This document shows positions 14,205-17,432 of a DNA stretch of 18,092 nucleotides, piece by piece (within the stretch, counting starts at the first letter, position 1; every line of letters begins with the position of its first letter). The stretch is from an uncultured archaeon (GTDB lineage Archaea; Asgardarchaeota; Lokiarchaeia; Sigyniarchaeales; SOKP01), in assembly GCA_964583985.1 (NCBI GenBank), contig CAZOYD010000066.1, forward strand, positions 1 through 18,092. Reading direction: 5' to 3'. The translations under genes were made by a program, and so were the position numbers. The notes under the pieces were generated by a model. It worked only from the letters and a program-made list of their open reading frames with translations. It did no database searches and was not told the origin of the DNA.

Positions 14205-14692
14205 TTAATCCACCATGTCTTCAAAAGCTTCAAGGGCTAACTCAATTTAAGAGGTTTGAGGGATTTCCTCAAATTTTATCTCTTGGAAAGCCATTGCGTC
14301 TTGAAGATTACCTTCTACTGTAATATCACCAGCCATATAGGCACTTGTGGCGTTTTAGCGCTGTTTAGAATTTAAACTAGCTCAACTTCGCCAAACAACA
14401 TGCCTGCACCAACTTCTTGGGTTGCGGAAAATGTGAAAGATGGATTGTCAACAACACCTTCTCCGAATTCAAGAGTGCCATCATGAGCTTTTAGCCAAAA
14501 TTTAGCGTCTTTATCGGTTATGATCATTTGAATAACGATATCCATGTCTTCTAATTCTTCTTTGAGGTCTTCGTTTTCTTCAGCAATTTGCTTGAATAGT
14601 TCGAATACTTTTAAAGAATCAGCAGGTGATGCTGCTGCTGCTCCAGCGTCAAACTTTCCTTTCATTTCATTAATTAATGCTTCGTCAACCAT
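14205..14692 (-). CDS. SCP2 sterol/lipid-carrier protein, 142 aa after removal of two BHB introns (exons 14692-14383, 14353-14277, 14246-14205)
   Basis: Exons 310+77+42 = 429 nt give MVDEAL...FGEGVVDNPSFTFSATQEVGAGMLFGEVDATSAYMAGDITVEGNLQDAMAFQEIIELALEAFEDMVD*. This includes the SCP2 C-terminal signature G.xD...AxMxGxIxVxG that is missing from the listed 110-aa ORF. Confidence 0.88.
14247..14276 (-). other. 30-nt BHB-type intron 2 in the SCP2 mRNA
   Basis: CAA-GAGA-TA^A-aaTTTGAGG aaatc CCTCAAAcc-TCTT-AA^A-TTG; removal gives GAG ATA ATT GAG (E-I-I-E) and deletes an in-frame TAA. Confidence 0.85.
14354..14382 (-). other. 29-nt BHB-type intron 1 in the SCP2 mRNA
   Basis: TGGCG-AAGT-TG^A-GCTAGTTTA aattc TAAACAGC-GCTA-AA^A-CGCCA; removal gives GTT GAC GCC (V-D-A). 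Confidence 0.82.
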
Positions 14693-15121
14693 TTTGATTT
14701 TCAACCTTCTTTTATAGTTTTGTACTTATTTTGATTGTTAGGTTATAATAAATACTATTAAGTATAACTTTTTACTATATAAAAAGATTATATTTCTTCT
14801 TATATAATATAGTAAAATTGGAATGCATTACTTTTTTAAATTACTATTTTTTTCGTCGGTAATAGAAAAGTTTTAGAGGGAGAAACATGATAAATATCTT
14901 GATAAGGGTAAAAACTTAAAAAGTTGTTTTCAAAAATGTAAATGCATTAACAACTTTAAATATACGTGAAGAGATGAAGGATTTTTCTTGCGTGTATTAC
15001 TTAAACCATAAAAATAAAAGCATTTAATCAATGAGAATAATAAAACTTTGCTTTAAAATAAATTAATACACTCCTATCATATTTTAATTCAGAATCATTG
15101 CTTTTCTGGGTGTTTTGACAA

Positions 15122-16276
15122 ATGATAAAGAAGAACAGAAAAGATTATTTAGAAATCAAGAATGAATTGAAGATTTATTTTGATAAAATTTTTGATAATT
15201 ACCCTGATATACCAGAGAACCTTCCTAGCTTAAGAAATATAGGTAATATGTTCAAAGTCGCAAGAAACTTTGTAAAGAAGTATCTCTTAAGTGAATATAT
15301 TTCATTGCACTTTGATGAAGATCCTTCTGAATTATACTCCCGTTACTGGCCAAAAACGCGTTCTGAAAAAATAGATGAGATTCATGATAAACTAATTGAA
15401 GAATTTAGTTATCAATTTAATAGGTATTATCCCAATGAAATAGAATGTATTTCTACAATAGGGCAATTATCTAAAAAATATGGAGTTGGATTTATTTCTA
15501 TCAAAGTATGGCTAATGGATTATATTAAAGAAATATTTGAAATTAATATCGCTGAAAAGATATATACTGAAATCTTTCCAACATTATCATCACAATCACC
15601 TTCTTATACTGATATCAAATGCCTTATTGAGAGCAGACAAGGTCAGTTGTTAACATGTGAAACTGACTGGAATAATATGAAAGAACAGCCTACAAAAAGA
15701 TATATTGACATAAAATGCAAATTTGGGCACAATTGGAGCCCTACCATTAACGGTTTATTATATGATAATCGATGGTGTCCAACTTGTAATGAAAGTAAAG
15801 GAGAACAGTTAACACGAATGTATATGGAGGCAATCTTTTCAAAGATTTCTGGGAATCCTATAAAATTTCCAACTGTTACACTTTATAATGCATTTCATAT
15901 TGATGTTAATAGAGGAGGAAGGATGCATTTTGACGGATATAATCCAAATGTAAAAATAAGGAAAAAATTTTTCAGAATTGCTTTTGAATATGATGGAAAA
16001 CAGCATGATACATACCCAAATTCAATCCATAGAAAATTTTCAGAATTTCAAGAACTGCAGAAAAGGGATAAGTTAAAAGAAACTATATGTAATCTACTTA
16101 AATTTAAAACAATCTTAATTAGAATTAAAGAAATCTTGGGTTTTAATTGTTCTAATCCTCAAAGTTTTCAAACTGAAATTATTCGACAATTTCAAAAAAA
16201 CACGGGAATAAAGATTTCTAATTTGCCTATGCTGGAGTATAATATACTTGAAAATAATTTAAATAGAAAAAAGTAA
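15122..16276 (+). CDS. Putative free-standing endonuclease: two N-terminal HTH-like repeats, Zn ribbon, Vsr/DUF559-like nuclease domain
   Basis: KCKFGHNW...WCPTC Zn ribbon; ESKGE, FDGY, IAFEYDGKQH, QKRDKLKETIC, LIRI nuclease-type motifs. Confidence 0.75.
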   Translation: MIKKNRKDYLEIKNELKIYFDKIFDNYPDIPENLPSLRNIGNMFKVARNFVKKYLLSEYISLHFDEDPSELYSRYWPKTRSEKIDEIHDKLIEEFSYQFNRYYPNEIECISTIGQLSKKYGVGFISIKVWLMDYIKEIFEINIAEKIYTEIFPTLSSQSPSYTDIKCLIESRQGQLLTCETDWNNMKEQPTKRYIDIKCKFGHNWSPTINGLLYDNRWCPTCNESKGEQLTRMYMEAIFSKISGNPIKFPTVTLYNAFHIDVNRGGRMHFDGYNPNVKIRKKFFRIAFEYDGKQHDTYPNSIHRKFSEFQELQKRDKLKETICNLLKFKTILIRIKEILGFNCSNPQSFQTEIIRQFQKNTGIKISNLPMLEYNILENNLNRKK

Positions 16277-16372
16277 ACAGATAAAAAATAGTACCCATAA
16301 TTCTAATATTAAGTGATTAGAAACATTATACCCTCCTCTTATATAAATTCCAGAAATTTTTATTTCTAGAAT

Positions 16373-17245
16373 ATGCTTGAAAAAAGTGAGTCTCTTGCTG
16401 AGATGTTAGGGATAATCCTTGGAGATGGTCGTCTGAGATGGGATCCCACAGGAAGGCATTATCAATTGGATGTCATTCTAAATTGGGTTGAAGAAAAAGA
16501 TTATGTCCTTTATGTTAATGATCTTATGATGAGATTATTCCAATATAAACCTAAATTATCAAGGCAAATAAATGAGGATGGTTCAATAGGAAAGGGTATA
16601 TATCTTACTATTTATAGCAAAAAACTAGTCTATGAACTAATATCCTTAGGTTTAATACCTGGAAATAAAGTAGAGAACCAAATCAAAGTCCCAAAATGGA
16701 TTAAGGAATGCAAATCCTATATGATAGCGTGTTTAAAAGGACTATTTGATACTGATGGTTCCATATTTCCTGTCATAAAAGAAGGTGCAATTAAAATGAA
16801 TTTTAAAAATGGATCTCTATCTTTAGTTGAAGATTTCAAAGAAATGACAGAATTATTTGAAATCAAGACATCAAAAATATCTTCTTACTCTGAGATTACG
16901 GAAAAAACAAATGAATTCTCAATTACCTTTATTTTACAGATCCAAGCAAGAAACCAAGTGAAAAAGTTCCTAGATATTATAAATCCTATGAAATGGGAAT
17001 ATCGAAAAGAATATTTATTAAAAATAATAACGAATCCTTTTGATTATACTATGGAATATTATTCTGATAGTGATATTGAAAATTGGATATTACTTTATGA
17101 AAAATTTAAATCTTATAGGCTAGTTAGTGAATGCATATTGAAAGAACAAGGAAAATCTCCGAAAATTGATACAATACGATTACGAATAAAAAAATATTTT
17201 GGTGAGAAATATGAAAAATGGCTAAAAGATGTTAAAAGTATGTAA
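16373..17245 (+). CDS. Free-standing two-motif LAGLIDADG homing-endonuclease-like protein
   Basis: LAEMLGIILGDG and ACLKGLFDTDG motifs, with GL.PGNK...IKVPKWI between them. No intein splicing blocks. Stop lies 17 nt from the tRNA 3' end. Confidence 0.88.
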   Translation: MLEKSESLAEMLGIILGDGRLRWDPTGRHYQLDVILNWVEEKDYVLYVNDLMMRLFQYKPKLSRQINEDGSIGKGIYLTIYSKKLVYELISLGLIPGNKVENQIKVPKWIKECKSYMIACLKGLFDTDGSIFPVIKEGAIKMNFKNGSLSLVEDFKEMTELFEIKTSKISSYSEITEKTNEFSITFILQIQARNQVKKFLDIINPMKWEYRKEYLLKIITNPFDYTMEYYSDSDIENWILLYEKFKSYRLVSECILKEQGKSPKIDTIRLRIKKYFGEKYEKWLKDVKSM

Positions 17246-17279
17246 TTGAATTGATAAGTGATTGGCGCCCACACCGGGA

Positions 17280-17309
17280 ATTTCATCGCGTATGGTTTTC
17301 ATACGCGGA
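17280..17309 (-). other. tRNA intron at position 59/60 (T-loop), near-canonical BHB
   Basis: CCGGG-TTCA-AA^T-cCGCGTATG aaaac CATACGCGa-TGAA-AT^T-CCCGG; splicing restores TTCAAAT. Confidence 0.9.
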
Positions 17310-17355
17310 TTTGAACCCGGGTCGCAGGAGTGACAGTCCCGAATGCTGGACCGGA

Positions 17356-17385
17356 TTATGCGTGAGGTTTGAAGCAATCCTTACT
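17356..17385 (-). other. tRNA intron at position 15/16 (D-loop), relaxed BHB
   Basis: GTGT-AG^A-GTAAGG attgcttcaaa CCTCAC-GCAT-AA^T; central helix GTGT/GCAT; no clear outer helix. Confidence 0.8.
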
Positions 17386-17423
17386 CTACACTATGTGGGC
17401 AAAATGTTTTTAAATACTAAAAG

Positions 17424-17432
17424 TTATAAAAA
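17424..17432 (-). promoter_or_regulatory. Candidate TATA box for tRNA-Asp
   Basis: TTTTTATAA on the minus strand, ~24-32 nt upstream of the mature tRNA 5' end; the AT-rich background lowers specificity. Confidence 0.45.

Follow-up and report, generated by a model that had tools for sequence, protein, structure and literature searches.

The stretch of DNA analysed here (the window, which is the whole contig C66, 18,092 bp) very probably contains a functional tRNA-Asp(GTC) gene, the only one detectable in its genome, with a predicted precursor of ~138 nt from which two 30-nt introns of the BHB type would be cut by EndA, the exons being joined by RtcB. The 3.8-Mb genome has a G+C content of 31.7% and is rated 100% complete; the host is a member of the Promethearchaeia, i.e., a Loki-type Asgard archaeon.

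Gene architecture and the sole detectable tRNA-Asp copy

The gene and its upstream element consist of the following parts, all on the minus strand:

17424..17430, minus strand: TTTATAA, a TATA-like box occupying -30..-24 relative to the 5' end of the tRNA (direct sequence reading)
17263..17400, minus strand: tRNA-Asp(GTC), whole gene with encoded CCA, 138 nt, a G+C-rich stretch (direct sequence reading, and ARAGORN on the spliced form)
17386..17400, minus strand: exon 1, nt 1-15, comprising the acceptor 5' strand, U8 A9, the D-stem strand GUGU, and A14 G15
17356..17385, minus strand: intron 1, 30 nt, at 15/16, after G15, relaxed HBh' (absent in relatives, covariation, motif scan)
17310..17355, minus strand: exon 2, Sprinzl positions 16-59, comprising the rest of the D-arm, the anticodon arm with CUGUCAC, a 4-nt variable loop, the T-stem 5' strand, and the T-loop to A59
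17280..17309, minus strand: intron 2, 30 nt, at 59/60, after A59, near-canonical hBHBh' (absent in relatives, covariation, minimum-free-energy fold)
17263..17279, minus strand: exon 3, nt 60-76, comprising U60, the T-stem 3' strand, the acceptor 3' strand, G73 and CCA

In its unspliced form the gene is not recognized: neither ARAGORN nor Rfam at the gathering score calls a tRNA anywhere in the window, and a permissive Rfam scan of the unspliced gene yields a partial tRNA match of 13.5 bits. Removal of both inserts gives a 78-nt tRNA-Asp(gtc), which ARAGORN folds into a regular cloverleaf. By direct reading, the spliced product carries U8, A14, G18 G19, A21, U54 U55 C56 A58, G73, G10.U25 and C38. 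The set of Asp identity elements derived from yeast work (G73, G34 U35 C36, C38 and G10.U25) is completely present in the spliced sequence, and its role in the host is assumed. An intron-free orthologue from the same genus (L016) is equal to the predicted mature tRNA-Asp except for one base in the D-loop, and scores 60.1 bits against RF00005. The ARAGORN cloverleaf and this intron-free orthologue bear out the original prediction, according to which the tRNA-Asp is complete once two 30-nt non-canonical BHB-type inserts are removed and position 37/38 holds no insert; its structural description was right in every detail that was checked.

The exons are well preserved, exon 1 being identical in orthologues of the same exon group and exon 2 showing 92-100% conservation among relatives. 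Upstream of the gene, 65-100 nt can be aligned in several relatives, and the TTTATAA box is likely, from its sequence and position, to be the archaeal promoter. The fold of the whole 138-nt precursor has a z-score of -3.3.

A second tRNA-Asp was not found in the 100%-complete genome by a regular expression for the GTC anticodon arm, by BLAST with the mature form, by ARAGORN with introns allowed, by Rfam, or by a splice-and-rescan procedure in which BHB-like inserts beside G+C-rich flanks were listed, spliced singly or in pairs, and rescanned. Genome-wide, a GTC anticodon arm with tRNA-like flanks occurs in this gene only, and the motif-driven splice-and-rescan of the complete genome recovers exactly these two 30-nt introns. 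As the only tRNA-Asp found, the gene should be essential. Because it escapes two widely used tRNA finders, tRNA-Asp will be wrongly recorded as missing when genomes of this lineage are annotated.

The failure of the standard finders would also fit a decaying pseudogene, in which the inserts are junk that broke the gene. Such a reading is extremely improbable, given that the exons are intact, that the inserts are kept across genera with compensatory changes, and that a TATA-like box is present at -30..-24. In particular, the original prediction had proposed to check for another tRNA-Asp in the genome, and the pseudogene alternative fails because the complete genome has none that could be detected. 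A functional two-intron gene thus remains the preferred reading. A search of the rest of the genome for further copies of the two introns, such as transposition would leave, gave only short chance matches. A hairpin on another contig (C33:35711-35743, GGATT-GCTTCA-AATCC) has 13 nt in common with intron 1, possibly by chance; this match, also a 79% hit of the search for orthologues, was ruled out as a tRNA, being an AT-rich hairpin.

Intron junctions and BHB structures

The evidence for the exon-intron junctions comes mainly from relatives. Orthologues were searched for in 40 related genomes, and the gene was found in most of them. At these loci 3 species have no intron, 9 have only the 59/60 insert and 1 has only the 15/16 insert, while both inserts are present in 3 other relatives and inserts at other sites in 2. 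Intron 1 is precisely absent in L002, L003, L016 and others, and intron 2 in L011 and L016-L019. All four intron states are present among congeners with near-identical exons, so that these loci provide a convenient, nucleotide-precise natural series for the gain and loss of tRNA introns. By sequence, the 59/60 junction is uncertain by 3 nt, since UCC stands at the start of the intron as well as of exon 3. For this T-loop intron the position 59/60 is selected by the modelled BHB geometry alone, in which a 4-bp helix H lies between two 3-nt bulges and the cut falls after the second bulge base.

The tRNA-Asp genes of several relatives are interrupted in other ways. A third insert is found after the anticodon stem in L049 (G155), an insert within the anticodon stem, on its 5' side, in L007 (G023), a differently placed D-loop insert of 18 nt in L017 (G003), and a T-stem insert in L063 (G073). 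The relative G018 has two tRNA-Asp genes, on contigs C305 and C347 (L067 and L011). One contains the 59/60 intron and has a LAGLIDADG neighbour; the other contains only the 15/16 intron and has an odd T-loop, UCCAAAU, with a C at position 55. The bin could be a mixture of two strains, or one of the two genes could be a copy in decay.

In the 59/60 intron the T-stem (49-53/61-65) serves as outer helix h. The central helix H is formed by UUCA (54-57) and UGAA (i25-28), and is flanked by the bulges A58 A59 i1 (AAU) and i29 i30 U60 (AUU). Helix h' is an 8-bp hairpin of i3-10 with i16-23, with a C.A mismatch (i2/i24) beside the bulge. The original prediction had named the T-stem as the outer helix of this intron, and the pairing is indeed present. 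When 19 distinct introns of 30 nt at this site are aligned without gaps, 86.7% of the cells are paired, compared to 23-58% when the partners are slid by 1-3 columns, and all 8 pairs of h' show compensatory changes on both sides. Percentage paired and covariation score both exceeded those of every slid control and were reached by none of 500 column shuffles, although here, as in the equivalent test of the 15/16 intron below, the structures tested came from the same sequences. The 59/60 hairpin is also present in the minimum-free-energy fold, and the T-arm segment has a z-score of -5.2.

The 15/16 intron is organized differently. Its central helix H pairs GUGU (10-13) with GCAU (i25-28), including two G.U pairs, and its bulges are A14 G15 i1 (AGA) on the 5' side and AAU. 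Helix h' is present as a 6-bp hairpin of i2-7 with i19-24 with one A.C mismatch. An outer helix h beyond the 3' cut is lacking; as a consequence, this intron belongs to the relaxed HBh' class and would depend on relaxed substrate recognition. An alignment of 10 distinct 15/16 introns shows 79% pairing versus 20-64% for slid controls, with compensatory changes in 6 of 6 h' pairs, and its percentage paired and covariation score likewise exceeded those of every slid control and were reached in 0 of 500 column shuffles. It had been noticed that the D-loop intron carries GCAT, in imitation of the D-stem 3' strand. This mimicry is confirmed for the present gene, but exact identity is not kept in relatives, which have GCAA or ACAT at this place.

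Thermodynamic folding gives a less clear picture of intron 1. Folded alone, it is no more stable than its shuffles (z = -0.2), and its minimum-free-energy structure is in another register, where GUGU pairs with ACGC (i23-26). If the intron were cut in that register, 28 nt would be removed and two extra A's would stay in the D-loop of an 80-nt product. In addition to having the lowest free energy, the ACGC register gives 4 pairs (GCGC or ACGC) in the group of L009, L010, L011 and L014, versus 3 in the GCAU register. It is nevertheless very unlikely to be the one used, since all intron-free orthologues, without exception, have 7-8 nt between G15 and A21 and no extra A's. Moreover, the 5' bulge and the h' helix would lose their BHB geometry, and covariation in the alignment peaks at slide 0 (79% paired, versus 61% at -2). 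The GCAU register, with removal of 30 nt, is therefore preferred. The 4-bp central helices of both introns are absent from the minimum-free-energy fold; together with the lack of a folding signal for intron 1, this means that the case for the two motifs rests on comparison and not on energy.

The adjoining insertion and its LAGLIDADG gene

The 3' flank of the tRNA-Asp gene is occupied by an insertion with two reading frames. These features, and the homologues of the endonuclease-like gene, are located as follows:

14922..17259, no strand assigned: insertion of about 2.3 kb that relatives lack, separating the tRNA 3' end from the SCP2-family gene (blastn against orthologous loci)
15122-16276, plus strand: ORF of 384 aa within the 2.3-kb insertion
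16373..17245, plus strand: free-standing gene for a LAGLIDADG endonuclease-like protein of 290 aa, in convergent orientation to tRNA-Asp (Pfam LAGLIDADG_3)
L067:1495-2373 and L068:1456-2376: full-length LAGLIDADG homologues, convergent, ending 19-20 nt from the tRNA-Asp 3' end
L071, L073, L075, L076, L079-L084 and L089-L092: distant LAGLIDADG loci beside tRNA genes, in genomes of the family

In relatives the SCP2-family gene is found ~90 nt past the 3' end of tRNA-Asp, and in L008 the two flanks of the insertion are 92 nt apart. A distance of 17 nt separates the end of the LAGLIDADG gene from the 3' end of tRNA-Asp, and the encoded protein contains two motifs, the Asp residues of which are both retained. 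With an endonuclease gene 17 nt beyond the tRNA 3' end, it is evident that the 59/60 intron, for which a role in blocking integration or cleavage had been suggested, failed to keep this flank free. No integrase-type att repeat of the tRNA-Asp 3' end is present in the contig. The 384-aa ORF has no match in Pfam, NCBIfam or PHROG; its nearest ESM-Atlas clusters are viral proteins of the DUF723/DUF4379/NUMOD1 type (score 0.93), which offers a lead, to be taken as such, that it may be akin to viral nuclease-associated DNA-binding types. On the far side of the insertion, the SCP2-family gene (about 14283-14719, minus strand) aligns with its orthologues as two segments, with a gap of ~26 nt (14355-14380) between them. 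This gap presumably corresponds to the 'SCP2 intron' of the original prediction, and would then be a mini-intron of the tRNA type inside a protein-coding gene.

The distribution of the LAGLIDADG gene is patchy, and its site is fixed. Within the family, full-length homologues are confined to two further genomes, one of them from another genus, with 61-63% sequence identity, and dozens of relatives lack the gene at this position. More distant free-standing homologues, with 36-47% identity, adjoin tRNA genes in 16 of 23 loci, within about 1 kb and mostly at 70-300 nt. Their sites include a tRNA-Met/tRNA-Thr spacer, tRNA-Phe, tRNA-Arg, tRNA-Ala, an rRNA spacer and a 17-tRNA array. By chance such adjacency is expected in a few percent of cases per locus; the loci are non-independent and represent at least 7 distinct sites. 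The array (L083, at 326-1695 of G078:C14) consists of 17 close-packed intron-free tRNA genes followed by the LAGLIDADG gene, and belongs to a lineage in which most tRNA genes are otherwise interrupted. It has the look of a mobile element or virus, or of a contaminant contig.

Free-standing endonucleases beside ORF-less group I introns are known from phages, where the process is called 'collaborative homing'. The tRNA-Asp introns could have been kept or spread through the neighbouring homing endonuclease in two ways: the 59/60 intron may break the recognition site and provide immunity, or the repair of a double-strand break here may carry the tRNA, introns included, into other genomes by co-conversion. 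In line with this, each of the three genomes with a full-length copy of the LAGLIDADG gene has it at 17-20 nt from the 3' end of tRNA-Asp and carries the 59/60 intron, and the tRNA adjacency of the distant homologues points in the same direction. Such a role is unlikely, however, considering that the 59/60 intron is found in 44 genomes and the full-length endonuclease gene in only 3, and that three out of three is not significant against a background of 44/82 for this intron. In addition, the three tRNA-Asp and intron sequences differ, giving no sign of recent co-transfer, some of the tRNAs next to an endonuclease gene lack introns, and the positions of the introns differ, so that there is no simple pairing of endonuclease and intron. 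A link between the LAGLIDADG gene and the 59/60 intron was rejected, three cases being too few to carry weight.

The broader proposal, that Loki-type Asgard archaea contain a free-standing LAGLIDADG family that homes to tRNA flanks and acts together with the mini-introns at tRNA-Asp, is put forward as an idea with a small chance of being right. Known free-standing homing endonuclease genes beside their target are the phage seg/mob genes and F-CphI beside psbA. The present arrangement resembles these in combining a patchy endonuclease gene with a fixed spot beside a conserved gene that holds a small ORF-less intron. It differs from them in the archaeal host, the LAGLIDADG type of the endonuclease, the tRNA neighbours and the protein-spliced BHB introns. 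If true, the proposal would provide a concrete route for the spread, or the precise loss, of BHB introns, the central open problem according to a 2026 preprint (10.64898/2026.10.13.758758). The presence of endonuclease genes beside tRNA genes, an association of which no mention was found in the literature searched, is in itself a lead on the dynamics of introns and tRNA loci.

Predicted splicing, distribution and relation to known tRNA introns

The genome encodes two EndA paralogues. The alpha subunit matches the catalytic chain of the Aeropyrum pernix (A. pernix) enzyme (3p1z_B, E = 1e-36), and the alignment includes the Tyr/His/Lys triad as well as the lysine of the Crenarchaea-specific loop (CSL), which is part of 'SKPR'. 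In the beta subunit Tyr is changed to Phe and His to Ser, as expected of a structural subunit. These alignments place the host EndA among the broad-specificity enzymes with CSL, of a predicted (alpha-beta)2 type, and the original prediction had indeed expected an EndA of the broad-specificity kind. Asgard archaea have been reported to possess this EndA type with its loop, which was tied to relaxed substrates (Kaneta 2018, PMC5829648), and a 59/60 intron of ARMAN-2 is cleaved in vitro by a broad-specificity EndA (PMC3239211). The genome further contains one copy of RtcB (PF01139, 556.9 bits) and a TGT-family gene of ArcTGT-like size.

These components suggest the following pathway. Transcription would give a precursor of ~138 nt with both introns, and each intron would fold together with the adjoining exon bases into a BHB-type motif; in the 15/16 motif, the intron copy of the D-stem 3' strand would take over GUGU. 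The heterotetramer-type EndA would then make its cuts 3' of G15 and i30 for intron 1, and 3' of A59 and i30 for intron 2, upon which RtcB would join the three exons to a 75-nt tRNA plus CCA. That the RNA is in fact cut and ligated, the order in which the introns leave, and the modification of the D-loop and T-loop after splicing are inferences. Splicing may plausibly precede modification of G15 and the T-loop, because G15 lies at the 5' cut and residues 54-57 are paired in the modelled splicing-competent fold. With one canonical and one relaxed motif in a single gene, the tRNA-Asp precursor offers a ready substrate pair for Asgard EndA.

The distribution of the introns was surveyed in genomes of the same class. 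The 15/16 intron occurs in the tRNA-Asp of 13 of 160 class genomes, all from one family and spread over five genera. An insert of 28-30 nt at 59/60 is present in 44 of 82 pattern-matched tRNA-Asp genes from the 160 genomes and absent in 38, the 44 being a lower bound, because the T-loop pattern is blind to inserts longer than 30 nt. Both introns are found in at least 7 class genomes by cross-reference, and in 2 more by their locus sequences. A pattern scan with one genome per species picked out 41 species in which such a tRNA-Asp has an insert in its D-loop, all of them Asgard (Promethearchaeota, Promethearchaeia and similar labels) or DPANN (Micrarchaeota, Aenigmatarchaeota); the tRNA-Asp genes of Micrarchaeota carry an insert similar to the 15/16 intron. 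Intron lengths are remarkably uniform: 19 of the distinct T-loop inserts are exactly 30 nt, with nearly all others at 28-32 nt, and among 12 distinct 15/16 introns, 10 measure 30 nt. In the same genome at least 9 other plausible two-intron tRNA genes are found, with introns that are mostly 30 nt long. An example is tRNA-Arg(GCG), with a D-loop and a T-loop intron of 30 nt each.

A review of tRNA introns lists 59/60 as a non-canonical position, and 15/16 is not on its list (PMC4090602). A phrase search for an earlier report of 15/16 gave nothing relevant; a term with a slash is unsearchable, and we therefore do not claim that this position was never reported. The view that 15/16 is a rare position does not hold here, given its occurrence in 13 class genomes and the similar insert in Micrarchaeota. 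The original prediction had named Thermoproteales-type archaea as the main bearers of such tRNAs; the present host is not Thermoproteales-like but a Loki-type Asgard archaeon, from a group with published heavy tRNA interruption, D-arm introns included (PMC11291895; bioRxiv 10.64898/2026.10.13.758758). In Atabeyarchaeia and Freyarchaeia, 92-95% of the tRNA genes contain introns, which are often multiple and often at non-canonical sites (Valentin-Alvarado 2024, PMC11291895). According to the 2026 preprint, ~30% of such inserts are missed by tRNAscan-SE, mostly in the D-arm, T-arm inserts usually have canonical motifs, and gains are recurrent, by a route of arrival that is unknown.

Multi-intron tRNA genes being already described in Asgard archaea, the two-intron tRNA-Asp is a clean further example. 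In common with the multi-intron genes of Atabeyarchaeia and Freyarchaeia/Jordiarchaeia, it contains several short BHB-type introns, at D- and T-arm sites missed by standard finders and with clean presence and absence among relatives, and has a two-subunit EndA in the background. Unlike these systems, it belongs to another class, the Promethearchaeia, which lies outside the focus of the two studies, and its introns cluster tightly at 30 nt. With Thermoproteales and ARMAN-2 (PMC4090602, PMC3239211) it shares the 59/60 site, the combination of hBHBh' and relaxed HBh' motifs, and a broad-specificity EndA. In contrast to the intron transposition seen in Thermoproteales, the introns described here have no copies common to different tRNA genes.
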